64,000 nt of DNA, taken from a virus (Duplodnaviria; Caudoviricetes). Below, piece after piece: positions 1 to 62,707 of this stretch. The notes beneath the pieces were generated by a model. That model did not search any database. It was not told the origin of the DNA and saw nothing but the letters and a program-made list of their open reading frames with translations. The DNA lies in the IMG/VR virus record IMGVR_UViG_2912740531_000001, positions 1 to 64,000 of that record, one strand, 5' to 3'. The translations under genes were made by a program, and so were the position numbers. The stretch's first letter is position 1; each line of letters starts with the position of its first letter.

Positions 1-1239
1 TCACGCCGCGTCGCGCATGGGCGATGGCTCGGGCCGTGAGGTCAGACTGGCGGCGAAAGCTCCATAAGTGTCGGCGTGGTCCTTCAACAGGTGGCTGTAC
101 GTACTGCGCAGCATCTCGACTGAGTCGCCTACCCACGCGGCCACGGTGTGCTCGGGGATTCTGTTCTGGAGGCACGTGGAGATGAAGGTGTGCCGGAGGT
201 CATGGAAGGTTGGAAGGTTCCCCTTCTCATCCTTGATCCCTAGCTTCCGCAGCGTGGGCTTCCACAGACATTCGTTGAAGTGGTTCTTGCAGAGGAGGGT
301 GTTGTGTGGCCCCCAGAAGAGGGCCTGTACCGAGCCACGCTGGCAGTCATCGATCTTCTGCTTGTGCTGCCACAGGACGTTTTGTGCGGCCCGCGGAGGG
401 TGGCGGTGCATGTGTTCGTTGAGGGTTTCTTGGAGATACGGGGGGATCGGAACGTCTTTCGTGGTGAGGCGCGGGCTCGTCTTGAGGCGGTCTATGAGCG
501 TGGGCTTGTGACGAGTCTCCTTGGTCTTGAGCACTTGGCGGTGAACGGTGAGCAGCCTTCTGTCTGTGTCGATGACGTCTGTGCACACGGCTAGCGCCTC
601 TGCTTGCCGGACGCCGCAGGCGAAGCCGAGCATCGGGATGGGACGGTAAGGCTCGGGAAACTCGTCATAGATTGCCCAGCACTCGTCTGGGGTGAAGACG
701 TACGACTCCGTCGCGCTTACGTAGGGTCCGGGGACCTCGTATGTGGGGTTGGCGGCGATCCTTCCGTTCTGGAGGGCGTCTCTGATAATCATCTTGAAGA
801 CCTTCCAGTGGCCTTCGGCCGTGCGGTTGGCGAGGTTCTTGTTGGCCTCCATCTCCTGGACCCAGACCTCTACTTGGGCCCGCTTGATGGTCCGCAGGCG
901 CTTGCTTCCCCAGCGAGGGTTGAGGTGTAGGCGAATAGACACCTCATAGTTCACGACGGTGCCTTCCTTGGCGCGGCGCCTGCTGAGCCAGTCGGCAGCC
1001 CACTCTTTGAAGGTCAGGGATGCTTCGGCAGGCTCCGGAGCTACGCCGCTAGCCATGTTGTCCAGAACGGCTTGCGCCTGAGCCTGGGTTATGCCAACTG
1101 ACTCGGGGATAGTGGCTCGTGTGCGGTTACCCTCGGCGTTCGTGAGGTTGTAGGACCAGCTATGGCCGCAGCCGCCCTTCTTGGGGCGGTTCTGGTCGGA
1201 GCAGTCGCACCGCTTGTAGACAGTGGGCTTGCGTGCCAC
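1..1239 (-). CDS. int: Tyrosine recombinase / phage integrase
   Basis: Catalytic motifs GVRQAE, FHDLRHTF and C-terminal TYSH; N-terminal arm-binding and SAM-like regions. Confidence 0.95.
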   Translation of the reverse strand: MARKPTVYKRCDCSDQNRPKKGGCGHSWSYNLTNAEGNRTRATIPESVGITQAQAQAVLDNMASGVAPEPAEASLTFKEWAADWLSRRRAKEGTVVNYEVSIRLHLNPRWGSKRLRTIKRAQVEVWVQEMEANKNLANRTAEGHWKVFKMIIRDALQNGRIAANPTYEVPGPYVSATESYVFTPDECWAIYDEFPEPYRPIPMLGFACGVRQAEALAVCTDVIDTDRRLLTVHRQVLKTKETRHKPTLIDRLKTSPRLTTKDVPIPPYLQETLNEHMHRHPPRAAQNVLWQHKQKIDDCQRGSVQALFWGPHNTLLCKNHFNECLWKPTLRKLGIKDEKGNLPTFHDLRHTFISTCLQNRIPEHTVAAWVGDSVEMLRSTYSHLLKDHADTYGAFAASLTSRPEPSPMRDAA

Positions 1240-1404
1240 GGGATACCTCTCGAGATTCAGTGGGTTCGCGGGTGACTCCCTGGCCAGGGGAGTTTGACTG
1301 TACGTAGGCGCAGCCGTGGCCGGTCAAGCCCGACGGGCGGGGGCTGGACGAGCGGTGATGGACCTTCTATTCGCGGCAATGGCACCTACGTCGGCGTGCG
1401 GGAT

Positions 1405-1590
1405 TCACTCCATGCGCGCTTCTATCCATGCCTCGAAATCGCGCTCCCGGACACGAAGAATGCGATCGCTGACACGTACGACGGGGATATCCCAGTTCCT
1501 GTAGTTGTCGAGCACCGTGCGCTTTGTGACTTCCATTCGCTCGGCAATCGTCTCGAAACTCAGCAATACGTTGGAGCCACCGCGAGCCAT
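1405..1590 (-). CDS. xis: Excisionase-like small HTH protein
   Basis: 61 aa, LLSFETIAERMEVTKRTV...IPVVRVSDRILRVRERDFEAWI pattern; directly upstream of int. Confidence 0.8.
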   Translation of the reverse strand: MARGGSNVLLSFETIAERMEVTKRTVLDNYRNWDIPVVRVSDRILRVRERDFEAWIEARME

Positions 1591-1674
1591 CGTCGTCCTT
1601 GCTTTCTCGTAGGTGTCCCCCGGCGGACCGATCCGGCCGGACGGAGCCGGTTGCGTTCCGCCCGGCACCGATAC

Positions 1675-1704
1675 GTACGTCGATCATCGGAATCTGTTAC
1701 ACCT
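1675..1704 (-). promoter_or_regulatory. ECF-type promoter 1 (xis-int)
   Basis: AGGTGTAAC-N16-CGTAC on the minus strand; same motif at 10592 and 62707. Confidence 0.7.
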
Positions 1705-2068
1705 CTGCGAGGCCCGCCGGTCTCCAGCGCGATGAAGTCGCTTCGTGGTGGTGACGGTTGGGATGGACGGGTTGCCCTCGAGATCGATGGCGGCGGGGTG
1801 GTGGCGTTCGTTGGGCATCGCAACATGGGCGCGGCAAATCGGGCGCACGGCCGGGGCGTCTGCGACGGCCGGGGCATACCCGCACCGCGTGGCAGCGAAG
1901 GTTGCGCGCCATCGCTGATCTGTTCGATGCGTTCTGTGACTGATTGGTTATGCTGCCTCGGTGCCGCATCGGAACGTGATCGTCCGTTGGTGGGGAGACC
2001 GTGGTGGTTGGTCCGAGGGCGGCGCTGTAGTTGATGACCACAGCACCGGCTTGGGGGGATAGCACGCC

Positions 2069-2737
2069 GTGACCGACATTCTGGAGGCCCTGGTCGCACG
2101 CGCCGTAGCAGGCGGGGACGACGGGGCTGACGCCATTGGGGCGTTATACGACGAGCTCAATGACACCGTGTACCACTGGGTGCGGTTCTACATCCGGGAC
2201 GGACACGTCGCGGAGGATTTGTGTCAGGAAGTGTGGCTGAAGGTCGCCCAGAACATCAGCAAGTACCGCGCGGGGACGTGTCTGCTGGCCTGGCTGCGCA
2301 CGATCACTAAGAACACCGCGCTTGACTACCTGCGCTCGGTGCAGCGGCGCCCCTCGGAAGTGCTGTACGCCGACCACCTTGAGCTCGACCGGCCGCGCTT
2401 CGATCAGAACCCGGAAGAGCACGCCGAACGGCGCGCACTGGCCCAGGCTGTTGCCTATCACCTGCAAAAATTGCGCCATGAGCAGCGGCAGGTCCTGATC
2501 CTGCGGTTCTTCGACGGGCTAACTCCGGGGCAGACTGCGCAGATCATGGGGAAGTCGGATGGCGCTGTCCGTACCCTCACGGTGCGAGCGCTGCGCAAGC
2601 TCGCCGCAGTCATGCCGGCAGGGGAGTCGTCTTCCGAATTGGTCGAAGAGCTGCTGTCGGCGGCAGCGGGCGGACATAGAGTTGTCGGAACACGGGTTGA
2701 TGCACGAGAGGCGAGGGTGCATGTCGCGACGCGCTGA
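2069..2737 (+). CDS. ECF sigma factor, BldN-like
   Basis: Region 2 (LYDELNDTVYHW...AEDLCQEVW...AWLRTITKN) and region 4 (VLILRFFDGLTPGQTAQIMGKSDGAVRTL) resemble Streptomyces BldN as recalled. TTA codon at 2144-2146. Confidence 0.9.
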   Translation: MTDILEALVARAVAGGDDGADAIGALYDELNDTVYHWVRFYIRDGHVAEDLCQEVWLKVAQNISKYRAGTCLLAWLRTITKNTALDYLRSVQRRPSEVLYADHLELDRPRFDQNPEEHAERRALAQAVAYHLQKLRHEQRQVLILRFFDGLTPGQTAQIMGKSDGAVRTLTVRALRKLAAVMPAGESSSELVEELLSAAAGGHRVVGTRVDAREARVHVATR

Positions 2738-3107
2738 CCAGAGTGAGCGCTTGGAGCGGGCGCTGGAAGGCGGGCCCATCCCTCATGATGAGGAGACCCG
2801 CCAGATGCTGGCTGCCGCGGGTGCACTGCATCCCGGCTACCAACGCAGTCCCTCGCGGGTGCGCGATGCCAGAGAGGCAATGCTCCGTGCGTACGCGCGT
2901 ACCCAGAACGCGCAGGAGACGCGGGAGGACGCGGGATCCGGTGACGGCCTGGACGAGCCGGAGCTTCATCGTGAGGAGATTGAACTGCCCGACGGTGGGC
3001 AGCTCGTGCTCACGGACATCGAAGACATCACACCGGAGCGTGCCCAGAAGATGGCCGACCGCGTCGCTCGCATCCTGAACAGCAAGGAAAGAGACCACCA
3101 GAGTTGA
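2721..3107 (+). CDS. Putative anti-sigma factor (RsbN N-terminus-like)
   Basis: ATG at 2721 overlaps the sigma 3' end. Helical N-terminus RRADQSERLERAL...MLAAAGAL...RVRDAREAML is reminiscent of anti-sigma domains. Confidence 0.55.
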   Translation: MSRRADQSERLERALEGGPIPHDEETRQMLAAAGALHPGYQRSPSRVRDAREAMLRAYARTQNAQETREDAGSGDGLDEPELHREEIELPDGGQLVLTDIEDITPERAQKMADRVARILNSKERDHQS

Positions 3108-3147
3108 GCAGCGCAATACCGGAGGGCTTCGGCGTCTGGGGGCAGCC

Positions 3148-4770
3148 ATGACCGAGTCGCAGCCTCGTGTCCGGATCCACATCTTCACTCCCGAGGACGA
3201 GGACGAGGACGACCTCACTGACCTGGGCCTCGTCAATGTTGGAGGCGAGCGCCTCCTGTTCCTGAAGCCTCAGAGCTTCGATTCGGCTGTTCGGCAGGTG
3301 CGTTCCGCATTGCCGGATCTCCCGCTGGAGCAGGTTGAGCGCTTGTTGCGCGAGCACCAGGAGTTCAAGGACTTCGAGGAACTGCTGGGGACGGCCAAGT
3401 CAGTTTCGCCCTTGGACATCACCCCTATGCTCGACGAGCCTCGCCTGCCGGGACGTCTGCGCGGCCGCACAAAACGATGGGTGATCGCTGCTGCGCTGGC
3501 GCCTGCGCTCGCGGGGAGTTGGGCACTGGGCTACTTCAGCGCCGGCAGCCCGGCAGGAACTTCAGCGAGTGTGCCGGACAAGAGCCCGTCGCCGAGTGCC
3601 ACCGACGCTTCGGCCGTGCGGCCCGCAGCGAAGCCGTTCGTCGGCCCGGAGTTCATGGACTTCTCCAAGGCTGGGCAGATCGACTGCAAGCCGATCGCCA
3701 ACCTCGAAGCGGAGTGCACGGACGCGGACGGCATGGTGATGTCGAGTAAGGCAGCGATCGGGCCGGACAGCACGATCTTCACCTTCTCGTACGGTTCGGA
3801 GCAGATAGGGCTGAGAATCTTCGGAGACGCGACCTACGCGGAGACGTGGGCCCGGCAGGACGGTACGACCGAGCTATACCCTAACCTCACCCGCTCCGGC
3901 CGGTACGTGCTCTGGGGCACGGACAAGAAGCGGTTGTCGGAGTACACGGAATTGCTCCAGGCCGCGAATGCTAGCTCCTCGACTAGACCGCACATGATGC
4001 GTTCGGCGGCACCGCTCCCGCCCCGTCTGGCCGCGCTCACCCTAGGCACCTTGGGGCTTGGCGAAGGGGACGTGGCGACCATCCTGCACTCGCCGCGCAG
4101 CGCGCCGCTCGCCGAGCCCGTACTCCTAGCTGCGCAAGCAGTGCTCGGTGTCCAAACAACCGTTCCGCGGTTCACGGGTGGCGATGACATCGTCGCGATT
4201 GCCGCCGGTCTTGATCGGCCGCCTGTGGTGTCCCCGGCCGAGCACACCACGGACATGGACCCCCCTACGGTCCCGATCGTGCCCCGGGGCACTCAGCCCA
4301 CGCCGATCGAGAACACCGAAGGGACGCAGCCGACTACGTCGACGCCGGCTCCTGCGGAAGAGCCGACCGCGGAAGGACCCCAGGCCGAGCAGCCGACATC
4401 AACGCCTGCTCCGGTCGAGTCAACAGCGCCGGAACAGTCCACACCTCCAGCAACGTCGGCCCCCGAGCCGTCGACTCCCCCGGCCTCCGATCCGGTCGAG
4501 GAGACGACTGCAGTCCCGGAGCCCACGGCTGTGGATGAGACCCAGACCGACGAAGGCTCCGGCCCGGTCGAGGAAACTCCGGCCGCCCCGGAGAGCCCGG
4601 CGCTGTCTGACGAGGGCTCAGCCCTGGTGGAGGAGACTCCGGCCCCCGTGGACCTGCCCGTGGATACCGCCGCTCCCACCGAGGAGCCGTCTCCCGCGGA
4701 TCCGAGCACGGGGCAGAGCGTGGACGACCTGCTGATCCTGGACTCGGCCTGGACGGTCGCAACCGCCTGA
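3148..4770 (+). CDS. Single-pass membrane protein with Pro/Thr/Glu-rich C-terminal tail
   Basis: TM-like WVIAAALAPALAGSWALGYF after basic residues; Cys pair in the external domain; low-complexity tail. Confidence 0.8.
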   Translation: MTESQPRVRIHIFTPEDEDEDDLTDLGLVNVGGERLLFLKPQSFDSAVRQVRSALPDLPLEQVERLLREHQEFKDFEELLGTAKSVSPLDITPMLDEPRLPGRLRGRTKRWVIAAALAPALAGSWALGYFSAGSPAGTSASVPDKSPSPSATDASAVRPAAKPFVGPEFMDFSKAGQIDCKPIANLEAECTDADGMVMSSKAAIGPDSTIFTFSYGSEQIGLRIFGDATYAETWARQDGTTELYPNLTRSGRYVLWGTDKKRLSEYTELLQAANASSSTRPHMMRSAAPLPPRLAALTLGTLGLGEGDVATILHSPRSAPLAEPVLLAAQAVLGVQTTVPRFTGGDDIVAIAAGLDRPPVVSPAEHTTDMDPPTVPIVPRGTQPTPIENTEGTQPTTSTPAPAEEPTAEGPQAEQPTSTPAPVESTAPEQSTPPATSAPEPSTPPASDPVEETTAVPEPTAVDETQTDEGSGPVEETPAAPESPALSDEGSALVEETPAPVDLPVDTAAPTEEPSPADPSTGQSVDDLLILDSAWTVATA

Positions 4771-4777
4771 ACAGCCA

Positions 4778-4809
4778 GAGGGGGCCCGGACTGATGTCCG
4801 GGCCCCCTC
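4778..4809. terminator. Hairpin between convergent genes
   Basis: GAGGGGGCCCGGAC-TGAT-GTCCGGGCCCCCTC perfect stem. Confidence 0.8.
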
Positions 4810-6428: not shown

Positions 6429-6458
6429 ACCGTGCAGGGTGCGACTGGTTAACGTCGC
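6429..6458 (-). promoter_or_regulatory. Late-type promoter motif (endolysin)
   Basis: GCGACG-TTAAC..N18-CACGGT. Confidence 0.7.
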
Positions 6459-6710: not shown

Positions 6711-7118
6711 ATGACGTGGTGGCAGGCGGCCCTTTGGGGCCTGGCCGGCGGAGGAGCGGCCTCGGTGCTGTCCTTCACGACGGCCGTAGTGTCGTCCGGG
6801 TACTCCTGGCCCTGGAGGAAGAAGATAGACGCCGGGGAACCGTCTGGGGAGTTGGGGCCGCGGCTGTTCGTGCTGGCCGCCGGGGCCGTGCTGGGCGCCG
6901 CGGTTGCGGCCGCCGCGCACGACCAGATCAGCGGCCCCTGGCCAGCCTTCATCTTCGGCGTCGGTGCCCCCGCCACACTCCGCGGCCTGCTCTCCGGCGT
7001 CGAGGTCGCCCCCCGCACCTACCCCGCGCCACCCCCTGGGCCCGCGTCGGCCTCGTCCGCGCCGCGCACGGCCCTGCCCGCCCCCGGCCCGGGAGAGGTC
7101 CGTGAAGACGCACCCTGA
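6711..7118 (+). CDS. Small multi-pass membrane protein
   Basis: Hydrophobic segments (WWQAALWGLAGG..., LFVLAAGAVLGAAVAAA, WPAFIFGVGA); overlaps the next gene. Confidence 0.7.
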   Translation: MTWWQAALWGLAGGGAASVLSFTTAVVSSGYSWPWRKKIDAGEPSGELGPRLFVLAAGAVLGAAVAAAAHDQISGPWPAFIFGVGAPATLRGLLSGVEVAPRTYPAPPPGPASASSAPRTALPAPGPGEVREDAP

Positions 7119-8037
7119 CACCCCGCTCGGCCGCATCGCGCTGGCCGCCCGCCCCGCCCGGCCGTGGCTGCACATCCGCGCCTCCCGCTGGTGGCGCCGT
7201 GTCCTGCTCGCCGCCGGCGCGCGGCAAGCGCCGTGGGCGGGGAAGAACTGGCGCGGCGCAGACCTGCGCGGCGCGGACCTGGCCGGCGTGGACCTGACCG
7301 ACGCGAACTTGACCCGCGTGTTCCTGAGCGGCGCGGACCTGACCTACGCGTTCCTGAGCGGCGCGAACCTGACCCACGCGGAAGTGCGCGGCGCGAACCT
7401 GAGCCACGCGGACGTGCGCGAAGCGAACCTGACCGACGCGGACCTGACCGATGCGGACCTGCGCAGCGCGAACCTGCGTGGCGCGAACCTGCCCCGTGCG
7501 TTCCTGCGTGGCGCGAACCTGCGCCGTGCGAACCTGGCCGACGTGGACCTGGCCGGCGCGAACCTGATCGACGCGAAGCTGCGCGGCGCGAACCTGCGCG
7601 GCGCGAACCTGACCCGCGCGAACCTGGACGGCGCGAACCTGAACGGCGCGAACCTGATCCGCGTGGACCTGCGCGGCGCGTTCCTGCGTGGCGCGAACCT
7701 GCCCCGTGCGTTCCTGAGCGGCGCGGACCTGACCCGCGCGGACCTGGACGGCGCGGACCTGGACGGCGCGGACCTGACCGACACGTACTTGACTGGCGCG
7801 AAACTGACCGGCGCGAACCTGCGCGGCGCGGACGTGAGCGGCGCGAACCTGGCCGACGTGAACCTGGCCGACGCGGACTTTGTGGATTTGACTTGGTCAG
7901 AGCAGACAATTTGGCCCGATACGCTTGCCGTGCAGATGCGGGCGCGCTCTGTACCGCTCGGGAGCGGCAAGTGGCGTGTGCAAGGGGCTGGCAACAGCGG
8001 AGCCGACCTGGAAGCACCGCCTCTGCCCATGCGTTGA
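7102..8037 (+). CDS. Pentapeptide repeat protein
   Basis: About 40 tandem A[DN]Lxx repeats (15 bp DNA period, ~7255-7880). Confidence 0.92.
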   Translation: MKTHPDTPLGRIALAARPARPWLHIRASRWWRRVLLAAGARQAPWAGKNWRGADLRGADLAGVDLTDANLTRVFLSGADLTYAFLSGANLTHAEVRGANLSHADVREANLTDADLTDADLRSANLRGANLPRAFLRGANLRRANLADVDLAGANLIDAKLRGANLRGANLTRANLDGANLNGANLIRVDLRGAFLRGANLPRAFLSGADLTRADLDGADLDGADLTDTYLTGAKLTGANLRGADVSGANLADVNLADADFVDLTWSEQTIWPDTLAVQMRARSVPLGSGKWRVQGAGNSGADLEAPPLPMR

Positions 8038-10275: not shown

Positions 10276-10491
10276 GGCTGGTGCGGTCCTCTCCCATGCG
10301 TCGGTGTCCGGCAGCGGGAGAGGGCTGCGAGCCCGCGGACTCCTACCGCGGCGCCCCGCCTCGCAAGCGGGGCATGCCGTCATGGCCGGCCCTCACCCGC
10401 CGCCGGGCCGGTTCCGCCCTCGTACCGGATGGGGCGGAGCCGGAGCTCGGCCGCGTTCGGTGACGTCGCCGAATGCTGCAGAGCCGCAAGG

Positions 10492-10520: not shown

Positions 10521-10591
10521 GTCCTCCACAAGGCGTTGCCCTGGGTGTACTATTCGGATCGGCTGGGAGAGCAACCCAGCTACCTGGGCCT

Positions 10592-10621
10592 AGGTGTAAC
10601 AAAAAGCGGCCGGCGGCGTAC
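10592..10621 (+). promoter_or_regulatory. ECF-type promoter 2 (replication operon)
   Basis: AGGTGTAAC-N16-CGTAC. Confidence 0.7.
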
Positions 10622-10704: not shown

Positions 10705-11307
10705 ATGTCGAACGACGTCGCCGACGGCACCCCGGTTGAGGAGCCGAAGGAGCTCCCCCTGCCGTCTCTTGCGCTGATTGGTGCGCTTGCCCGCGCCATG
10801 GAAGAGCATCAGGAGGTGGTCATCAAGCCGCGGAAGGACGCGCCGAAGGTGCCTCTGGTCGAGGGCTTCTTGAAGGAGAGGCGCAAGGACCTCGTCGTGG
10901 ATGTCGATGGCGTAGAGGTCGGGTACTACAAGGTCTCCACCACCAGGGACCGGTTCGAGGTGGCCGACCGGTCCGCGTTCGACGCCTACGCAGAGGGCAA
11001 GGGCGAGATCGACATCGTCATCACCGCGAAGCCTGCGTTCGAGAAGGCGGCGCTCAAGCACGCCACTGTCAGCCAGGAGACCGGCACCGTCTTCGACCGG
11101 CGGACCGGTGAGGAAATCCCCGGCGTCAAGTTCGTCCCGGGCGGGCAGCCCACTGGCAATGTCACCTGGACATGGAAGAAGCGCAATGGGGAGCCGGTCG
11201 GTAAGGACGTACTGCTGAGGGCTTACCGGGGCGGTCGACTCGACGAACTGCTGAAGGAGACGCCGGAGTTGCTGCCCACGAGGCAGCCCGGCGCGAGCGA
11301 CGAGTGA
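10705..11307 (+). CDS. Hypothetical phage early protein (weak Gam/Gp157-like C-terminal motif)
   Basis: RBS and GC3-rich codons; DRRTGEEIPGVKF motif. Confidence 0.7.
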   Translation: MSNDVADGTPVEEPKELPLPSLALIGALARAMEEHQEVVIKPRKDAPKVPLVEGFLKERRKDLVVDVDGVEVGYYKVSTTRDRFEVADRSAFDAYAEGKGEIDIVITAKPAFEKAALKHATVSQETGTVFDRRTGEEIPGVKFVPGGQPTGNVTWTWKKRNGEPVGKDVLLRAYRGGRLDELLKETPELLPTRQPGASDE

Positions 11308-11366
11308 CGACGGCCGCTTGGGTCCGGCCTCCTGCGGCCGGGCCCCTCTCCCCAGGAACCCAGACC

Positions 11367-11648
11367 ATGACCACGACTGCGACCGACCGGAGTCGGAACT
11401 TCTCCGACCGAGCGCACCGCATTCTTTTCGAGCTCGCCATGCATCCCGACGGCGAGTGGGTCGGCGTGACGTCCATCTACACCAGTCTCGGGCTGAACTC
11501 TCACGAGGTTCGCGGCGCCCTCACCGAACTGCGCAACGCGGGCATGGCCGAGAGGAAACGGCGCTACGTGCGCGACGAAAAGACCGGCCGCCGGACACAC
11601 CGCACCTACTTCCGCCTGACCGACACCACCAGCGAGGCATCCGCATGA
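11367..11648 (+). CDS. Small winged-helix DNA-binding protein
   Basis: SDRAHRILFEL...LGLNSHEVRGALTELRNAGMAER; ATGA-coupled to the next gene. Confidence 0.7.
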   Translation: MTTTATDRSRNFSDRAHRILFELAMHPDGEWVGVTSIYTSLGLNSHEVRGALTELRNAGMAERKRRYVRDEKTGRRTHRTYFRLTDTTSEASA

Positions 11649-12697
11649 CCAGCCGCCTAGCGAGCCCCACGGCGGTCCGTCACAACCGGCGTCGCCCCTA
11701 CTACGTCCACGTAGAGTCGACGACCGTCCGCAACACGCGCCTCAGCTACCGGGCGCTCGGGCTGTTGACCTATCTCCTCGATCAGAAGGAGGGGTGGCAG
11801 GTTCGGTCCGACCAACTCTCCAAAGGAGAGGGCCGCGAGGGACGTGAAGCCATACGGACCACGCTGCGCCTGCTCGCGGCTGAAGGCCACTACCGCCTCG
11901 AGCGGCGCCGACTGCGCAACGGCAAGGTAGTCATGGGCACGGCGGTGTCGGAGTATCCCGTGGAACAGTGGATCAAGGATCACGAGATTTTCAGCACCCA
12001 GAAGGATCCGGCCGTCCCCGTCGTCGAGCAGGAGGACGGCACGTTCTTCGTCGAGTACCCCGACGGCACCCTCGGCAGTGACGGGTTCGAGATCGACCCG
12101 TACGACGACGCGGAACCCCCCGCCGACCCGGAACCTGAGCCGGGTAAGGGCTTGGCTGAAGAGGAGCCACCCGCCGAGGAGCAGCAGCCCGCCACACCGC
12201 CGAAGAACGCCACCCGTACGCGACGCCCTCGCCGAACTCCAGCACAGAAGGCCGCCGATGACGCGAAGAAGGAGGCTGCAGCCAACCAGAAGGCCGAGGA
12301 GAAGGCTGCCCTGGACGCGGCCGCTGAGGAAGTCGCCAAGTGGTGGTGGGACGACGCCGAGAAGCACCTCGGCCCATTCGTCGGCAAGACGAACGGCTAC
12401 GTCGCCATGCGCGGCATGGTGAAAAAGGCGCTGGAGAAGGGCTACACCAAGCGGCAGTGCGCGGACGCCCTCCGGCACGCACGCAAACACCTACCAAGCG
12501 CGCAGCAGTGGCAGAACGCCCTTGGGGTCATCACCAACCGCATTGTTCCGAACCAGTCCAACGGGCGGGCCCCGTACAGCGACTCGGCGACCTGGGGCTA
12601 CCAGGGCGACGATCCGCCAAGCACGCCCGTCGGCACCACCAGCACCCCGGCAGACGACCTTGACGACGCCACCTTCGGCGTCCTCGCACGACCGTAA
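11645..12697 (+). CDS. Phage replication initiator (N-terminal wHTH)
   Basis: RLSYRALGLLTYLL...EGREAIRTTLRLL; lies upstream of a DnaC-like gene. Confidence 0.75.
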   Translation: MTSRLASPTAVRHNRRRPYYVHVESTTVRNTRLSYRALGLLTYLLDQKEGWQVRSDQLSKGEGREGREAIRTTLRLLAAEGHYRLERRRLRNGKVVMGTAVSEYPVEQWIKDHEIFSTQKDPAVPVVEQEDGTFFVEYPDGTLGSDGFEIDPYDDAEPPADPEPEPGKGLAEEEPPAEEQQPATPPKNATRTRRPRRTPAQKAADDAKKEAAANQKAEEKAALDAAAEEVAKWWWDDAEKHLGPFVGKTNGYVAMRGMVKKALEKGYTKRQCADALRHARKHLPSAQQWQNALGVITNRIVPNQSNGRAPYSDSATWGYQGDDPPSTPVGTTSTPADDLDDATFGVLARP

Positions 12698-12708
12698 GGA
12701 GCGCCACG

Positions 12709-13527
12709 ATGTCGGTCACCACGGACACCCGAGCCCCCGCTCCGGCGCGCGGCCTGAACGCCCTTGGAGATTTGAGCGCTCATCTCCTCGGTGTCCTCGA
12801 GCGCGGCGGCGCCGACATGTCCCAACTCGGCGTGCCCGCCCAGCCCGAGCCGGAGGACGGCCTCTGGGAAGACGTGGCCGTACCGCAGGCCCGCGCGCGG
12901 CGGAACATATGGCGGAACAGCATCCTCGATGCCTCGCACGACGAGTACCTGTCGTTTCGGCTCGACCACCTGGACGAGAACCAGAAGCCGAACACGCTTC
13001 GGAAGTGGCTCAAGTCGCTGGTGGAGGCTAAGAAGCTCGGTGCGCGGCCGTCGCACCTCAACCTGATCATGACGGGCAACATCGGCAGTGGGAAGACAGC
13101 CGGGGCAATAACGATCGGCAACGAGGCAGCGGAGCGGGGCCTGTGGACCCTGTTCGTCAAGCATGCCACCTACCTGACTTGGCGGCGCCCGGACTCTGCA
13201 CCACGCAACTTGAAGGCATGGGAGGTGCGCAAGCAGTTCGTGGAATGCGACCTGCTCATCCTCGACGAGCTTTGTGGCGAGATGGACATGACTGCCACCG
13301 AGTTCGCTCGCAGGGAGACCATCGACCTGATCGAATCCCGGATCGCGTCCGGTCGGCCCACGGCGTACACCACGAACCTGCGCAGCCGCAGGCAGCCGGG
13401 CAGTCAGGGCATGGGCGTGGTGGACATCCTGGGGGAGCGGCTGCTTTCCCGGCTCGAGTCCTCCGCCCACCTGGTGAAGGTCGTGGGCCCGGACAGGCGG
13501 AAGCCGGCGAAGCCGCTCGACTGGTGA
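12709..13527 (+). CDS. DnaC/IstB-like AAA+ helicase loader
   Basis: Walker A GNIGSGKT, Walker B LLILDEL, TTN, RLLSRL, GPDRR. Confidence 0.9.
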   Translation: MSVTTDTRAPAPARGLNALGDLSAHLLGVLERGGADMSQLGVPAQPEPEDGLWEDVAVPQARARRNIWRNSILDASHDEYLSFRLDHLDENQKPNTLRKWLKSLVEAKKLGARPSHLNLIMTGNIGSGKTAGAITIGNEAAERGLWTLFVKHATYLTWRRPDSAPRNLKAWEVRKQFVECDLLILDELCGEMDMTATEFARRETIDLIESRIASGRPTAYTTNLRSRRQPGSQGMGVVDILGERLLSRLESSAHLVKVVGPDRRKPAKPLDW

Positions 13528-13681
13528 CCACCGGAGCGAATAGGCCTATGTGTCCTGGAAACTGACGAGGTGGGAGTTGCAGACGCAGGCGCAAGAGGCG
13601 AAAGACGCTATATCGTTTAGTCGATCCGGAAGGCTATGAGCATACGCCGACCGGGGAGACCCGAACGAGAGGAAAGGTGTC

Positions 13682-14860
13682 TTGAAACGTCTGTCCGCCC
13701 GCTCAGACACGGATGAGGAGCCAAAAGCTCTCGATGACTCCGATGTACCGCCCCTCAGTGGCCGGGAGCGCTTTGGTGCTGGGCTGACCGCCCTGGGCGG
13801 GGCCGCCGTCGGAGGCCTCGGTTTCTATGCATCGTTCGACGCTGTGTCCAAGGCGGCCGCGTCCTGGGGCTTCACCGAACCGTGGGTCCTGCCCACCGCC
13901 ATCGACTCAGCCATCCCCGTCTTCACCGGGGCGTATCTCTTTCTCATCCGTATGGACATGCCGCTGTGGTGGGCGCGGCTCGTTCCCTGGGCCCTGAGCC
14001 TGGTCACCTGCGCGCTGAACGTCGCCTCCGGCGACTCCCTGTGGTCCAAGGTCGCCCACGGGGCCATGTCCCTGCTCTGGGTCGCCGTCTCCGAGATCGC
14101 CGCGCACACATACGCCGTCCGCATCGGCGCGGCCACCGGCCGCCGCCGGATGGACAAGGTGCGGCGGTCCCGTTGGTTTCTCGACCCTGTGGCCACCTTC
14201 CTGCTCTGGCGCCGCATGCAGTTGTGGGAGCTGTCGTCGTACGACAAGGCCCTCGAGCTCGAGCAGGAACGGCTCGAGTACCGGGCGCTGCTGCGTAGCA
14301 AGTTCGGTCGGGCCTGGCGCAGGAAGGCGCCCGTCGAATCGCTGCTTCCGCTGCAGCTCGTCCGCCACGGCCGCCCACTCAGGGAGACAGCCGCCGCCGG
14401 CCTGCTCGCAGCGGGCATCGAGCCCACAGGCATCTTCGCCTCAGCACCTGAGCCGCCCGTGCTTCCGGCCCCGGCCCTTCCGGTTCCGGGGGTGCCCGTC
14501 GTGCCCGCCCCGGCCAAGCCCCCGACTCCGTCCGTTCTGCCAGCCGTCAAAAAGCCCCGCCCCGTCGCGGTCACCGCGCCTGCGCAGCAGGGCGGCATCC
14601 CGCAGTGGAGTACCGAAGGTGAGCTGTACGAGATCATCAAGGACGTCATCGACAACGGCCGCCGGGACGTGTTCAACGGACCGCTGACCGGCAGGGCGAT
14701 CGGCCTGGTGCTCGGCAAGCACGAGGGCGAGGGGCGTAAGGTCCGTAGCCGCCTCATCAAGACCTATGCGGCGACGAAGGGCATCAGCATCCCGGACAAG
14801 GCCACCATGAACCAGGTCTTCGCCTTGTTTGGCCAAGCGCTGACGCCAGCCAACCCGTAG
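13682..14860 (+). CDS. DUF2637/SpdA-like membrane protein
   Basis: Four TMs with FYASFDAV...WVLPTAID; RWFLDPVATFLLWRRMQLWEL motif. Confidence 0.7.
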   Translation: MKRLSARSDTDEEPKALDDSDVPPLSGRERFGAGLTALGGAAVGGLGFYASFDAVSKAAASWGFTEPWVLPTAIDSAIPVFTGAYLFLIRMDMPLWWARLVPWALSLVTCALNVASGDSLWSKVAHGAMSLLWVAVSEIAAHTYAVRIGAATGRRRMDKVRRSRWFLDPVATFLLWRRMQLWELSSYDKALELEQERLEYRALLRSKFGRAWRRKAPVESLLPLQLVRHGRPLRETAAAGLLAAGIEPTGIFASAPEPPVLPAPALPVPGVPVVPAPAKPPTPSVLPAVKKPRPVAVTAPAQQGGIPQWSTEGELYEIIKDVIDNGRRDVFNGPLTGRAIGLVLGKHEGEGRKVRSRLIKTYAATKGISIPDKATMNQVFALFGQALTPANP

Positions 14861-14940
14861 GGCATCCTGCCCCTACCCGTACCGAAGCGGCGGGCTCCCC
14901 ACCTGGGGTGCCCGCCGCCTGCATGATCGGACCCTTCCAC

Positions 14941-15354
14941 ATGACACCGGAGATCCTGGCCCGGGTCGCTTCCGCTCGAGCGGCCCGTGACCTGTCCGAC
15001 CTCGCCCGGCAGGCTGTCGCGACGACCGCACAGACCGCCAGCCCGACGGAGCGCATCCGAGAGGCCCGCCGACTACGGGAGTTGGCCAACCAGGTTGTCG
15101 AACTGGTCGTGCTCGCCGAGGCCCTGGGCGGTGCGTCCTGGGAGGAGATCACGGATGCACTCGGCCGGCGGGAGCCGGGCACCGTGGAGCGGGAGTTCGC
15201 CGAGGACGTCGCCGAGTGGGGCGCCAAGACCGAGGAAGAGTTGGAGTGCGCGGCCGAGGGGCACGACGCCATTGACGAGTGGTACGCCCGGCATCGGGAG
15301 GACCAGGACCCGGAGCGCCCAGCTCCTGTTGCGGATCTTCTCAACAGGCATTGA
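14941..15354 (+). CDS. Hypothetical protein (GASWEEITDALG HTH-like)
   Basis: ORF with typical codon bias and an HTH-like motif. Confidence 0.65.
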   Translation: MTPEILARVASARAARDLSDLARQAVATTAQTASPTERIREARRLRELANQVVELVVLAEALGGASWEEITDALGRREPGTVEREFAEDVAEWGAKTEEELECAAEGHDAIDEWYARHREDQDPERPAPVADLLNRH

Positions 15355-15378
15355 GCTACCCGACCAGGCGGGTAGAAT
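15351..15378 (+). promoter_or_regulatory. Housekeeping-type promoter
   Basis: TTGAGC-N16-TAGAAT upstream of the AAA gene. Confidence 0.55.
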
Positions 15379-15474
15379 AGTAAGCCGATGTCAACGGCGA
15401 GAGGTTAAGCCCTCCACCGTTGCATCCTCCGCGGGAGAGCAACCCGGGGAACCACGAAGTGAGGGAACACCCAG

Positions 15475-17163
15475 ATGCCTGGTATCACCGCGCCTCAACG
15501 GCCGCGTACATCCCGGAAGCCGACCGGGCTGCCGAACCCGCCGATGATCCTCCTTGCGGGGGCTGAGAAGACCGGCAAGAGCCGTCTTGCTGCTGAGGGC
15601 ACCGCCTCCGAGTTGCTCGGTATGACCTTGTGGATCGAGATCGGGGGCTCGGAGGGAACCGCCGACTACTACGGCCGACTCCCCGGGGCCAACTACGAGA
15701 TCGTCAACCACGATGGCAGCTACCAGGACATCCTCGACGCCGTCCGTTGGGCCGTCGCCCAGCCGCCCGCCGTCGAGGGCAAGCGGAACATGATCGTGCT
15801 GGACAACTTCACGAACCTGTGGGACATGCTCAGCGACGAGCAGGCCCTTTACGCCCGGTGGAGGGCGGAGAAGAAGGCGAACGAGCAGCGCCGCCGCGGC
15901 CCCAACCCCGACCTCCCCGTCACCGTGGACCCCGACCTGTGGAACCGGGCGAAGGACCGGTGGGGCGAGATCCTGTGGCATCTGCGGCGGCACTCCGGCC
16001 CCGTGATCCTCATAGCCCGCCAGGAACTCGTCACCGCGTTCGAGAACGACAAGCCCACCCGGGACAAGACCCGCAAGACCAAGGCGGAGAAGAACCTCCC
16101 GGCCGCGGTCGACGCCATCGTTGAGCTCCACGCCCTGGGGGAGGCGTACCTGACTGGCGTCCGTACGCTGCACTGGGATGTCATGCCCGGCCAGAGCGAG
16201 CGGTTCGAGGATTTCAGCATCGACGCCCTGCTACGCCGCATGGGCTTCCAGGAGGCCGCCGCCGCTCGCCAGGTCACCGAGGCCCGGCCGGAGGCGTACC
16301 TGGACGAGCAGCAGAGGCAGCGCCCCCAGCAGAACCAGCAGCAGAGGCAGCGTCCCCCGCAGCAGAGGCAGGCTCCTGCCCAGCGGGGCGAGCGGCCGAA
16401 GCTGACCGGCGACCAGGCTGTCGAGCTGATTCGAAGGGCGCTCGCCGACGAGAGCAACCCGGAGGCCGAGCTGCAGGGCGTCCGGGAGACGTGGGGCATC
16501 GTCACCCTGCAGCAGATCCCAACCCGCACGCAGCAGTGGGGCGAGATGAGCGCGGACGACCTGATCACCCGCTCCCTCGCGTACGCCAAGGGTCGCGCCG
16601 AGTGGAAGCGGCAGCAGAGTGCCGATGGGCAGGCGGAGCAGACCTCGGCCCCGGCGGCGCCCCCGCCTGGCGCGGCCGCGGCGGACGGGGCCCGGGAGCA
16701 CCAGGTCCACGAGGAGTCGGAGCCGCCGGCCGACGACGACGCGCCCCCGCCGCCGGACCCGCAGGCAGAGGAGCCGCCGCTGGACGAGTCCCCGGAGGAC
16801 ACCAGCGCGGCCGAGGAGCCCCAGGACGTTCCCGCCGCCCGGCCTCCGGCTGTACCCCGCGCGCCCCGCAGGCCCCGGAACGAGGCCATCGCGCTCCGGG
16901 CGCTGAACGCCGAGGCGGACGTCCAGGCCCGGATCAAGATGATGACTGTGGGTGAACACCTCGAGCCGATCTCCGAGGCGGGCGACCCGCCCATGACCGT
17001 GCTCCGGGACTACCTCCAACAGCACCGGCCCGCGATCATCGCTCAGCTCGAGCAAGAGGGACACACGGAGCTCGCCGCCTACTACCGGAACGCCCCGACC
17101 GTCGACCCACAAATTCAGGAGAAGTTCGCCCCGTACTTCGCGGGCGCGCCCGCCGGGCAGTGA
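15475..17163 (+). CDS. AAA_24/Sak4-like ATPase (recombination/annealing) with long C-terminal extension
   Basis: Walker A GAEKTGKS, IVLDNFT, VILIAR. Confidence 0.78.
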   Translation: MPGITAPQRPRTSRKPTGLPNPPMILLAGAEKTGKSRLAAEGTASELLGMTLWIEIGGSEGTADYYGRLPGANYEIVNHDGSYQDILDAVRWAVAQPPAVEGKRNMIVLDNFTNLWDMLSDEQALYARWRAEKKANEQRRRGPNPDLPVTVDPDLWNRAKDRWGEILWHLRRHSGPVILIARQELVTAFENDKPTRDKTRKTKAEKNLPAAVDAIVELHALGEAYLTGVRTLHWDVMPGQSERFEDFSIDALLRRMGFQEAAAARQVTEARPEAYLDEQQRQRPQQNQQQRQRPPQQRQAPAQRGERPKLTGDQAVELIRRALADESNPEAELQGVRETWGIVTLQQIPTRTQQWGEMSADDLITRSLAYAKGRAEWKRQQSADGQAEQTSAPAAPPPGAAAADGAREHQVHEESEPPADDDAPPPPDPQAEEPPLDESPEDTSAAEEPQDVPAARPPAVPRAPRRPRNEAIALRALNAEADVQARIKMMTVGEHLEPISEAGDPPMTVLRDYLQQHRPAIIAQLEQEGHTELAAYYRNAPTVDPQIQEKFAPYFAGAPAGQ

Positions 17164-27331: not shown

Positions 27332-28306
27332 TCAGATCTCCTCGTCGTCCGGGGCCTCGACGAACTCGACGTCGGCGATGATCGACGTCCCGGCGTCCAC
27401 GGAGACGTCCCCCGTCTCCGCCTTGTACATGTAGGTCTGCAGGCGGAGGGTCTGCGTCGTGCCGCGCTTGGACGATGGCACGCTCATGTTGTCGGCCACC
27501 ACGACGGTTTGGCGGCGAATATTGGCGCCTTGGTCGTCATCAATGACTGTGTCCTGGCCAGGGTCCCCACCAAAGACGCTGTGCATCTTGGCGAAGACGT
27601 CAGCCCTGGTGAAGCGCAGGCCAGCCACGGTGACGACGATCTTCGCGCGGGTGGCCCACAGCGGCACGTCAATGTCCCAGCTCGCCACACCGGGCCAGTT
27701 GTGCCACTTGTTATCGGAGTAGCCGAGCGTGCTCAGTGACGTAGGGAAGACGGTGTAGAGGCGACGGTCCCGCCGCGGACTCACCATCGACCGCAGATCC
27801 TTGATCATGGCCTGAGTGATGGCGCTGGTGTTGGCCGGGATGTCGATACGGGCGAGCGCAATGGCGGAGTCCGATGCGCGCACTTGGCTGACGCGTGTTG
27901 TCGTGCGGGGCACGCCGCTGATGACCCGGGTGAAGATGTACGGTCCCACCGTCGGATCCGCTGGATTGGGCCACGTCTCCCCGAAGGAGTACGGGTTCTC
28001 GACCCGAGCCACGATGAGATCGGAGCGGGGAGATACCCCAGTCGCAGCGATGTCGACACTGTCGGCCGTCGGCAACCGCCCCGCGTACGCCTGATACGCC
28101 GCGCCGGCGGCCCGGTTCACGATGGCGCACGCCCCGGTCGTCACCTGCACTTCGGCCCCGGGAGAGGACAAGGCTCTCACTCGCAAGTCTCTGGAGCCGA
28201 CCACGCCCTCCGCCCCTCCGAACGCGGCGAACGCCAGCAGGCGCGCAACCTCCGAACTGTGCTGGGCGCCGCCCTCGGTGAACCACGGCACGCTGTCCCA
28301 CGCCAT
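27332..28306 (-). CDS. Minor tail protein
   Basis: PRSDLIVARVENP and ALARIDIPANTSAITQAMIKDLR, typical of actinophage tail proteins. Confidence 0.78.
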   Translation of the reverse strand: MAWDSVPWFTEGGAQHSSEVARLLAFAAFGGAEGVVGSRDLRVRALSSPGAEVQVTTGACAIVNRAAGAAYQAYAGRLPTADSVDIAATGVSPRSDLIVARVENPYSFGETWPNPADPTVGPYIFTRVISGVPRTTTRVSQVRASDSAIALARIDIPANTSAITQAMIKDLRSMVSPRRDRRLYTVFPTSLSTLGYSDNKWHNWPGVASWDIDVPLWATRAKIVVTVAGLRFTRADVFAKMHSVFGGDPGQDTVIDDDQGANIRRQTVVVADNMSVPSSKRGTTQTLRLQTYMYKAETGDVSVDAGTSIIADVEFVEAPDDEEI

Positions 28307-62061: not shown

Positions 62062-62091
62062 ACCATGAACAGCGGGCGGCGCTAGTGTCGC
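62062..62091 (-). promoter_or_regulatory. Late-type promoter motif (portal operon, leaderless)
   Basis: GCGACA-CTAGC..N18-CATGGT. Confidence 0.7.
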
Positions 62092-62098
62092 GTGCTGC

Positions 62099-62623
62099 TC
62101 AGCGCTTGGGGCGGGAGACCCCGGACATGTAGGCGCTGATGCCGCGCCGGTTGATCGTGCCGCCGGGGATGATCCGCGCGTTGGGTGGCGGGGTGGGGAT
62201 CTTCCGCTTCGCACGCTGGGTCTTGTCCCCGCCGATCAGATGGCTATTGTCGATCTTGGCGGCGCAGTCATCGCCCTTGACCTCGTCGTACGGCCGACGG
62301 CAGCCCTTGCAATAGACCTCGAGCGCGTCGACGCGCTGTCCCTCGGTGGCTTTGAACGAGCCGCGGTAGTCGGCGACGCTCGCGATCTTCGGCGTGACCT
62401 CGACCTCGGCGGCCACAACCCAGACGTGGGAGAGGTCCGGCGCTTCGGGTTCGGCGGCGGGCTCCGATGGGGGAGTGGTCTGCTGCTCGGGTGTGGGCCC
62501 CGGCGTGGCGGCCGGGGGCGCGACCGGCTGGGAGTCCGGCTCGGGTTCGAGCCAGGCGAAAAGGCTGTCCTGCAGATGGGAGCGGCCGGTCTCGGGCGAG
62601 AGGGGGGCTGTCGCGGTCGTCAC
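62099..62623 (-). CDS. Hypothetical protein with a CxxC...C...H putative Zn site
   Basis: YCKGCRRPY...DCAA...HLIGG and a basic C-terminus; RBS GGAGGA. Confidence 0.75.
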   Translation of the reverse strand: MTTATAPLSPETGRSHLQDSLFAWLEPEPDSQPVAPPAATPGPTPEQQTTPPSEPAAEPEAPDLSHVWVVAAEVEVTPKIASVADYRGSFKATEGQRVDALEVYCKGCRRPYDEVKGDDCAAKIDNSHLIGGDKTQRAKRKIPTPPPNARIIPGGTINRRGISAYMSGVSRPKR

Positions 62624-62677: not shown

Positions 62678-62707
62678 GAACGCCAACGGCCGTGTTCTGT
62701 TACACCT
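62678..62707 (-). promoter_or_regulatory. ECF-type promoter 3
   Basis: AGGTGTAAC-N16-CGTTC. Confidence 0.65.

Follow-up and report, generated by a model that had tools for sequence, protein, structure and literature searches.

The stretch of DNA analysed here, referred to as the window, comprises 64,000 nucleotides (positions 1 to 64,000 of the IMG/VR virus record IMGVR_UViG_2912740531_000001) and forms the left half of a temperate Streptomyces prophage of about 124 kb, which extends 60 kb past the window end and is carried in a host genome of 9,959,088 bases (9.96 Mb). Near the left end lies a group of three genes headed by that of a phage-encoded sigma factor of the extracytoplasmic function (ECF) type (2069-2737, plus strand; 222 aa). 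The sigma gene overlaps by 17 nt with a gene for a small acidic protein (2721-3107, plus strand; 128 aa), and a gene for a single-pass membrane protein follows (3148-4770, plus strand; 540 aa). Transcribed in the opposite direction are the genes for an excisionase (xis; 1405-1590, minus strand) and a tyrosine integrase (int; 1-1239, minus strand; 412 aa; Phage_integrase, 1.5e-8), the latter being the final gene on the attL side. A first-pass annotation, made from the letters of the window alone, had described an ECF sigma gene, an overlapping small helical gene and a single-pass membrane protein gene divergent from xis-int, and this description was borne out by domain matches and structural models. 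The same annotation had proposed that the prophage switch is built on this BldN-like sigma factor and its anti-sigma partner rather than on a CI repressor, a proposal that is weighed below.

Four probable sigma-type promoters in the prophage

Exactly three matches to the motif AGGTGTAAC-N16-CGTWC are present in the window, at 1675-1704 (minus strand), 10592-10621 (plus strand) and 62678-62707 (minus strand). All three are intergenic and each points at the next gene, as had been noted before. No match occurred in 100 dinucleotide-preserving shuffles of the window, and a search of the whole genome returned three matches each for this motif and for the shorter form GTGTAAC-N16-CGT, all within the window. 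A fourth site of the CGTAAC type, AGGCGTAAC...CGTAC, was found 27 kb past the window end at window coordinates 91007-91036 (minus strand), before the large terminase gene (terL), so that the earlier count of three copies was confirmed for the window and extended by one for the prophage. Two of the four sites carry CGTAAC. When the genome was scanned with a weight matrix built from seven sites, the four prophage sites included, these four scored 41.6-45.0 bits and the next-best place in the genome 18.2 bits; as the matrix was trained on the sites it scored, the scan is circular for those four, and only the empty rest of the genome counts as evidence.

The promoter facing xis-int (1675-1704) is composed of the -35 element GGTGTAACAGA, a 16-nt spacing between GTAAC and CGT, and the -10 element CGTAC, and it lies 85 nt upstream of the conserved xis ATG. 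The second (10592-10621) stands 84 nt before a replication and recombination operon, the third (62678-62707) at the head of the morphogenesis arm, 55 nt before its first gene, and the fourth about 300 nt before terL. All four have AAC in the -35 element and CGT in the -10 element, as expected for ECF promoters, and are probably recognized by the phage sigma factor. The layout YGTAAC-N16-CGT also matches the published architecture of BldN promoters, CGTAAC-N16-CGTTGA (PMC2375139), and of ShbA promoters, CGTAAC-N16-CGATGA (PMC12019637). The likeness to BldN promoters proposed in the first-pass annotation is thus upheld.

Conservation of the sites was followed in 39 related Streptomyces loci, 25 of which are of an integrated type and 14 of a plasmid type. 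In all 25 integrated-type loci, the xis-facing site was found at 400-650 bp before the sigma gene and on the strand opposite to it. None of the 14 plasmid-type loci has the site, and these are also without xis-int; xis and int together were present in 24 of the 25 integrated-type loci, with the integrase homologues upstream of the sigma gene. The replication-operon site was matched exactly in 11 of the 25 integrated-type and 12 of the 14 plasmid-type loci. Among the 14 integrated-type loci lacking an exact match, 11 of the 12 that could be checked have GTCAC instead of GTAAC, and the other two do not reach the operon. Across 25 distinct sequences of the xis site and 33 of the replication site, GGTGT(A/C)ACA and CGTAC are invariant or nearly so and the spacer is variable. 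The flank upstream of the xis-type sites is not conserved. Directly upstream of the -35 box of the replication operon, at 10560-10591, a palindromic flank, CCCAGCTACCTGGG, is kept in nearly all of the 33 distinct sequences; it might serve as an operator or form a hairpin.

The DNA between the two prophage attachment sites is collinear, in circularly permuted order, with the 129-kb Streptomyces phage Gilgamesh, in which gp92, gp91 and gp90 are the counterparts of the sigma factor, the small protein and the membrane protein (60, 61 and 46% identity). Gilgamesh contains exactly three sites that score at least 14 bits, and these are orthologous to three of the four prophage sites: one before gp83 (79639-79668; replication operon), one before gp44 (28108-28137; morphogenesis arm) and one at the right genome end. 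The last of these, the terL promoter, points across the genome ends. As the physical ends separate it from terL, it reaches this gene only in circular, concatemeric or prophage DNA.

The repeated element might instead be an operator for a DNA-binding regulator, e.g. a winged-helix protein, in which case its likeness to an ECF promoter would be coincidental. That there are only four copies, and that the replication-operon site is preceded by the conserved palindromic flank, would suit such a function. However, the element is bipartite, with two invariant boxes held at a fixed 16-nt spacing around a variable spacer, and it shares its architecture exactly with the promoters of the nearest sigma family. 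It also always points at a gene, whose start codon follows after 55-85 nt at three of the sites and after a longer distance at terL, and the xis-type sites have no conserved upstream flank at all. We therefore regard an operator as very improbable and refer to the four sites as sigma-type promoters in the following.

Genes served and a second promoter class

The operon behind the replication promoter (10705-17163, plus strand) is collinear with Gilgamesh gp83-77. It encodes a Gam-like protein, a winged-helix protein, a replication-initiator-like DNA binder, a DnaC-like loader, a DUF2637 membrane protein and a Sak4-like ATPase, with family matches to phrog_2205 (4.5e-6), phrog_1456 (3.7e-10), phrog_4707 (7.8e-7), phrog_50 (1.9e-22) and phrog_124 (3.1e-6) and further matches to IstB_IS21 (5.1e-8) and DUF2637 (1.4e-11). 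Its previous label as a replication operon is well founded in the DnaC-like loader (1.9e-22) and the replication-initiator-like and Sak4-like matches.

The xis-int promoter is followed by a leader of about 80 nt (1591-1674, minus strand), GTGCCGG..AACCGGCTCC.TCCGGCCGG, whose sequence is highly conserved across the relatives. The excisionase (HTH_17, 5.4e-4; TIGR01764, 7.8e-5; phrog_66) is 61 aa long when read from the ATG at 1590, within a longer open reading frame (ORF) that extends to 1668. This ATG and its AAGGA are kept in 12 of 13 aligned xis leaders, which makes it the most likely start. The GTG at 1668 is a less likely start, as in most relatives the GTG frame stops after three codons. 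Among the stems predicted for the leader, compensatory change was seen in only 1 of 17 pairs, so that we make no claim for an RNA structure; the leader could be a protein-binding or regulatory one.

The first gene after the third promoter (62099-62623, minus strand) encodes a gp44-like protein (174 aa) that contains a CxxC motif, ends in a basic tail and is 69% identical to the gp44 region of Gilgamesh. Searches for its family yielded nothing informative (phrog_12041 at 0.0059 only). Behind this gene, at about 62062-62091, lies a promoter of a second class. Its motif, GCGACRYWARS-N10-16-CAnn[GCT]T, was matched at 18 places in the genome. Of these, 16 fall within the prophage, almost always before virion, lysis or small downstream genes, and Gilgamesh itself contains 15. 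Candidates for the factor that reads this motif are the gp44-like CxxC protein and two HTH proteins encoded in the replication operon. Examples within the window, where the matches span 6429-62091, are at 6458, 22222, 35220, 58961 and 62091; others, outside the window, are at 87917, 94199, 100552 and 107382. After this second class had been checked, the idea that the site at 62678-62707 is the promoter of the whole portal-to-tail arm was dropped. As the virion genes possess a promoter class of their own, the sigma factor would occupy a middle tier of the cascade and not act as the late factor.

A BldN-related phage sigma factor

The phage sigma factor consists of regions 2 and 4 only (Sigma70_r2, 2.8e-16; Sigma70_r4, 5.1e-12), and its family shares a conserved C-terminal extension of about 40 aa after region 4. 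It passed the model of the ECF superfamily, TIGR02937, with 99.6 bits against a cut-off of 42.9. The best named family was BldN (NCBIfam TIGR02952), to which it scored 106.2 bits and so did not reach the cut-off of 206.45 bits; the host's own BldN scored 263 bits. The NCBIfam ShbA model was the third match, with 85.5 bits against a cut-off of 209. Among solved chains, the family profile best matched 6dxo_A (109.6 bits; the next chain had 78.8), an entry that we take to be the BldN-RsbN structure. Host BldN is also the nearest host paralogue; the two proteins are 36% identical over 177 residues, and their region-4 recognition helices are similar.

A tree was built from 25 rows of the phage family and 33 rows of host ECF sigma factors. 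The phage proteins come together in a single clade (support 100/95), and this is nested in a larger group (97/96) to which host BldN and a further five ECF sigma factors of the host belong; the branching order within that group is not settled by the tree. BldN is made as a longer precursor. The phage protein has no BldN-like N-terminal extension, and the alignment of the two begins at phage residue 8 and at residue 83 of host BldN. By these comparisons, the phage sigma factor is related to BldN and represents a separate phage clade outside the BldN family. The earlier designation as BldN-like accordingly stands for the nearest family, the structure and the host paralogue, but not for family membership (106 against 206 bits), and the placement among ECF sigma factors leads as far as the group shared with BldN, within which the phage proteins keep to themselves.

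Upstream of the sigma gene, an alignment of 26 upstream regions revealed a conserved block (1920-2005, plus strand), 60-150 nt before the gene, which is unique within the prophage and not of the sigma type. Part of it, GGTTATGCT, is also found upstream of Gilgamesh gp92. The block is a candidate for the promoter or operator of the sigma operon. A scan of 1240-3200 for the sigma-70 consensus found no promoter, and no LexA-type or PafBC-type box was seen in the conserved upstream block by an inspection that was made by eye only. Gating by bldA through a TTA codon was considered as a family feature and rejected: codon 26 of the sigma gene (2144-2146), which is TTA in the prophage, is TTA in only 2 of 20 relatives (TTG in 13, CTG in 4 and GTG in 1). 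A link to bldA is therefore no family trait, and the codon looks like a synonymous variant.

A sigma factor of the host, BldN or one similar to ShbA/SigD, might read the four promoters itself. Excision and replication would then be linked to aerial growth or to the growth phase, and the sigma factor of the phage would only reinforce or mimic that of the host. This would agree with the core YGTAAC-N16-CGT, which equals that of the published BldN and ShbA promoters (PMC2375139, PMC12019637), with the CGTAAC in two of the four sites and with the similarity of the region-4 helices. The phage sites, however, have further invariant bases (AGG upstream, ACARA after the -35 element and AC after CGT) which occur nowhere else in the host genome, and their -10 box is CGTAC or CGTTC, not CGTTGA or CGATGA; of each of the two host types, the host has one exact site elsewhere. 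In addition, a private sigma gene is present in all 39 relatives, and the TTA codon as a possible link to bldA is rare among them. Control by a host sigma factor thus appears quite improbable to us, and recognition by the phage's own sigma factor remains the preferred explanation for the four promoters.

A candidate anti-sigma factor and a membrane protein

The small gene overlaps the sigma gene at the same 17-nt offset in 39 of 39 loci and in Gilgamesh, and the membrane protein gene lies downstream in 37 of the 39 loci and, as gp90, in Gilgamesh likewise. Homologues of the sigma factor, the small protein and the membrane protein fall into more than 100 clusters (106 for the small protein), exclusively from Streptomyces. 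The small protein has no hydrophobic span. Its structural model predicts helices at residues 2-15, 24-35 and 44-62, joined by linkers (mean pLDDT 75, pTM 0.31), and beyond these a conserved acidic linker followed by a beta-hairpin and a helix. The anti-sigma domain of RsbN (residues 1-91) is described as three helices with flexible linkers (PMC6101532), a description which the small protein matches in topology only. A search of PDB sequences with the profile of the small protein returned nothing below E 0.086. On the basis of the model and its coupling to the sigma gene, the small protein is a candidate anti-sigma factor that would most likely hold the sigma factor inactive.

In the membrane protein, a single hydrophobic span at about residues 112-135 separates a cytoplasmic N-terminal domain, modelled at 8-79, from an outside alpha/beta domain (175-340; pLDDT about 90) and a disordered tail rich in Pro, Thr and Glu. 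Comparison of the model with the PDB by Foldseek gave nothing at E <= 0.001. In a wide VIA fold search the best Z was 4.3, with weak START/Bet v1-like and PknH-sensor rows within the noise, and we make no claim as to the fold. The protein may act as an anchor or as a sensor. Between the sigma operon and the convergent ssb gene, a perfect 11-bp GC-rich hairpin was read from the sequence (4781-4806), which is likely a two-way terminator.

A candidate repressor next to attR

No CI or XRE repressor had been recognized in the window by the first-pass annotation. A batch scan of 115 prophage proteins between 45 and 450 aa long, including 44 encoded in the window, matched 56 families, and the 25 leading ones did not contradict this. 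Outside the window, beside attR, three genes on the minus strand form a set at about 4073670-4076146 of the genome. They encode an XRE-like helix-turn-helix (HTH) protein of 209 aa (window coordinates 120572-121201), an ImmA/IrrE-like HExxH protein of 202 aa with the sequence HEAWH (119967-120575), whose gene overlaps that of the 209-aa protein, and a membrane protein of the MAB_1171c/DUF6545 family (118725-119882). In the circular element, the sigma gene and this set are about 5 kb apart.

Neighbours of the 209-aa protein in a protein language model (0.94-0.96) carry HTH_3 or HTH_31, and those of the 202-aa protein (0.92-0.95) are named as IrrE/ImmA-type peptidases. The order is the same in Gilgamesh, where gp98 matches HTH_3 at 3.7e-4 (below the cut-off), gp99 is annotated as a metalloprotease and gp100 matches DUF6545 at 4e-20. 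All of the five integrated relatives tested carry a MAB_1171c-family gene at a distance of 98-125 kb from, and on the strand opposite to, the sigma gene. Each of them has an HTH-like ORF upstream of the MAB_1171c-family gene, and four also have an HExxH ORF there. One of the five HTH ORFs matched HTH_31 at 0.049, and three of the four HExxH proteins matched Peptidase_M78 at E about 3e-4, with about 21 bits against a cut-off of 22. When the 209-aa protein was used as query, a counterpart was recovered in one of the five relatives, so the HTH proteins are very divergent, which would fit an immunity function without showing one. The HTH gene is preceded by two AACGATCGTT-like palindromes (window coordinates 121271 and 121294). 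Searches of PDB sequences with the HTH and HExxH proteins gave nothing useful, and a six-frame genome scan with HTH_31 had no prophage match among the 150 of 577 candidates that were scored, which says little.

Taken together, the XRE-like protein and the protease are candidates for a repressor pair of the prophage. The view that the sigma module takes the place of a CI repressor fails because this repressor-protease candidate adjoins the sigma region in the circular map. A CI-type repressor outside the window has thus been found in candidate form, its control over induction being presumptive.

A switch without CI would require that the sigma factor is already made in the lysogen, held by the anti-sigma factor and released by a membrane or developmental signal, so that the switch would consist of the trio of sigma factor, small protein and membrane protein. 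In line with this, the trio is conserved as a unit with translational coupling of the sigma and small genes in all 39 loci, it is divergent from xis-int, all four promoters serve functions of induction, the membrane protein has a confidently modelled extracytoplasmic domain, and no operator common to the HTH and sigma regions was found. This is countered by the XRE-like and ImmA/IrrE-like genes beside attR, by their equivalents in Gilgamesh and by the recurrence of the set in the relatives (membrane gene 5/5, HTH-like ORF 5/5, HExxH ORF 4/5). Other regulators, such as a GntR-type protein, are encoded by the element as well, a promoter for positive feedback is absent, and expression of the sigma operon in lysogens would have to be assumed. 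We consider a switch made of the trio alone to be unlikely and return to a sigma factor that acts beneath a repressor.

A proposed sigma tier beneath a candidate repressor

In our view it is reasonably probable that the phage sigma factor is the dedicated activator of a small lytic regulon under a higher-level repressor. This regulon would consist of the four promoters of the form AGGYGTAACARA-N13-CGTWC, which stand before xis-int, the replication and recombination operon, the first gene of the morphogenesis arm and the large terminase gene. The sigma gene would be started by another holoenzyme. Once active, the sigma factor would drive excision, replication and the start of the late programme, and most virion and lysis genes would be left to the second phage promoter class, which places the sigma factor in a middle tier. 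The three-helix protein, translationally coupled to the sigma factor, would hold it inactive, and the membrane protein may act as anchor or sensor. Lysogeny would most likely be kept at a higher level by the XRE-like repressor and the ImmA/IrrE-like protease next to attR. The earlier suggestion that the phage sigma factor fires excision, replication and the beginning of the late programme together has in this way received strong comparative support, with the third site heading the morphogenesis arm.

Several observations weigh against this model. Neither in the window nor in the 39 loci is the sigma gene preceded by a site of the sigma type that points towards it. The autoregulation that is canonical for ECF sigma factors is hence absent, and the start of the sigma gene has to be assigned to another holoenzyme. 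Alignment of the small protein with host RsbN by hhalign gave a probability of 0.2%, i.e. no detectable similarity, and a Foldseek search of the PDB with its model returned nothing at E <= 0.001, the extended helical model being a poor query. At the other end of the prophage, neither the XRE-like nor the HExxH protein is recognized by any Pfam, PHROG or NCBIfam model. The surroundings of the sigma gene contain no copy of the palindromes that precede the HTH gene, and no operator shared by the two regions was found, so that a link between the HTH module and the sigma operon did not emerge. Since further MAB_1171c genes are present at other places in these genomes, the set of three could also have a role other than phage immunity. 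Finally, host BldN or ShbA might read the same core motif.

Comparison with known systems

The phage module shares with sigma-BldN and RsbN the restriction of the ECF sigma factor to regions 2 and 4, promoters of the type GTAAC-N16-CGT and a partner gene that adjoins the sigma gene (PMC6101532, PMC2375139). The small protein, with its three predicted helices and linkers, resembles RsbN residues 1-91 (PMC6101532), and full-length RsbN has a layout similar to that of the membrane protein, in which a cytoplasmic N-terminal part of about 110 residues is joined by a single membrane pass to an outside domain and a tail of low complexity. In contrast to RsbN, the helical and the membrane part are encoded by two separate genes, and the small protein has no sequence similarity to host RsbN. 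Unlike BldN, the phage sigma factor is below the family cut-off, phage-encoded and without N-terminal extension. It is associated with the -10 elements CGTAC and CGTTC instead of CGTTGA, and with genes for excision, replication and packaging instead of chaplin, rodlin or bldM genes.

The system also resembles sigma-ShbA/ECF40 (SigD), which has the same -35 element and spacing and a very small regulon (PMC12019637); the available sections of this source name hrdB and shbA as the only two targets. The phage sigma factor, however, stays far below the ShbA cut-off of 209 and is associated with another -10 box, and it has no promoter of its own type whereas ShbA is autoregulated. Phage sigma cascades such as the middle and late ones of Bacillus phage SPO1 or T4 gp55 are comparable in that a viral sigma factor redirects the host core polymerase as a temporal tier (PMC13401047, PMC2988020). 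SPO1 and T4 are lytic and use sigma factors outside the ECF type, as opposed to a temperate phage with xis-int in the regulon and with a coupled putative anti-sigma factor and a membrane protein.

Pairs of a repressor and a metalloprotease occur in other mobile elements, for which ImmR-ImmA of ICEBs1 and the phi105-type pairs are examples, and a related pair is DdrO-IrrE. As in ImmR-ImmA, a putative XRE-type HTH gene in the prophage adjoins an HExxH ImmA/IrrE-like gene close to int and att. Different from ImmR-ImmA, the prophage pair reaches no curated model, and is always followed by a MAB_1171c-family membrane gene, and no operator connecting it to the lytic genes was found. Another parallel is pSAM2, an 11-kb conjugative element of S. 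ambofaciens, where the activator Pra and the repressor KorSA control the repSA-xis-int operon. Both are Streptomyces integrative elements, and in pSAM2, as proposed for the prophage, one dedicated activator serves replication and excision and is itself held by a repressor; but Pra is no sigma factor, and pSAM2 is conjugative and no phage.

To our knowledge, descriptions of temperate-phage switches nearly always present them as repressor circuits. In this prophage, the executive step has apparently been passed to a phage-owned ECF sigma factor with a tiny and readable regulon. The arrangement is conserved in more than 100 Streptomyces elements and, according to the 39-locus comparison, a trait of the family. 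It offers a testable model for a sigma tier wired into lysogeny and a handle on little-studied, very large actinophages, which seem to occur in two forms, integrated prophages and separate replicons of about 125 kb. It may also provide an orthogonal pair of sigma factor and promoter, perhaps with an anti-sigma factor, for Streptomyces engineering. A limited search of the literature, without supplements, found no description of a phage sigma factor of this kind or of Gilgamesh.

Should the membrane protein indeed sense a signal, this would represent a viral use of ECF signal transduction. In its widest form, this idea would imply that a family of temperate Streptomyces phages of about 105-130 kb, integrated or plasmid-like, uses a complete ECF signalling unit as the trigger of induction. 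The anti-sigma function would then be split between a soluble three-helix inhibitor and a membrane sensor, the four promoters would be a private regulon, and an envelope or developmental signal would decide on excision and replication, alongside or above a conventional repressor. We hold this extended version to be rather doubtful.

Prophage ends, relatives and further genes

The prophage is bordered by an att direct repeat of 144 bp (97.9% identity) at window coordinates -694 to -551 and 123398 to 123541. The repeat overlaps the 3' end of a host ORF of 771 aa (window -2847 to -532, plus strand), and the phage thus apparently integrates at the end of a protein-coding gene and brings a replacement end.

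Many distant relatives, with sigma factors that are 55-65% identical, are located on contigs of 124-132 kb, one of which is labelled a plasmid, and have no xis-int beside the sigma gene. Closer relatives are found on chromosome-sized contigs. Gilgamesh possesses ParA/ParB-like genes. Given the contigs of 124-132 kb without xis-int and the ParA/ParB-like genes of Gilgamesh, this group of phages may exist both as integrated and as plasmid-like prophages.

A short GntR-type regulator of 124 aa, YtrA-like by eye, is encoded outside the window at 96572-96946, between two membrane-protein genes (96173-97710, minus strand). A match to PF00392 (5.1e-17) from a batch scan was attributed to this ORF after inspection of its sequence. 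Pentapeptide-repeat proteins (Pentapeptide, 3.7e-72; Pentapeptide_3, 6.5e-21) are encoded at 6711-8037 (plus strand) and at window coordinates 78154-78834, where Gilgamesh has other genes; they are probably cargo. A tRNA-Arg gene (anticodon GCG) is predicted at 10326-10400 (minus strand), flanked by the ParB-like gene on one side and the sigma-type replication promoter on the other.

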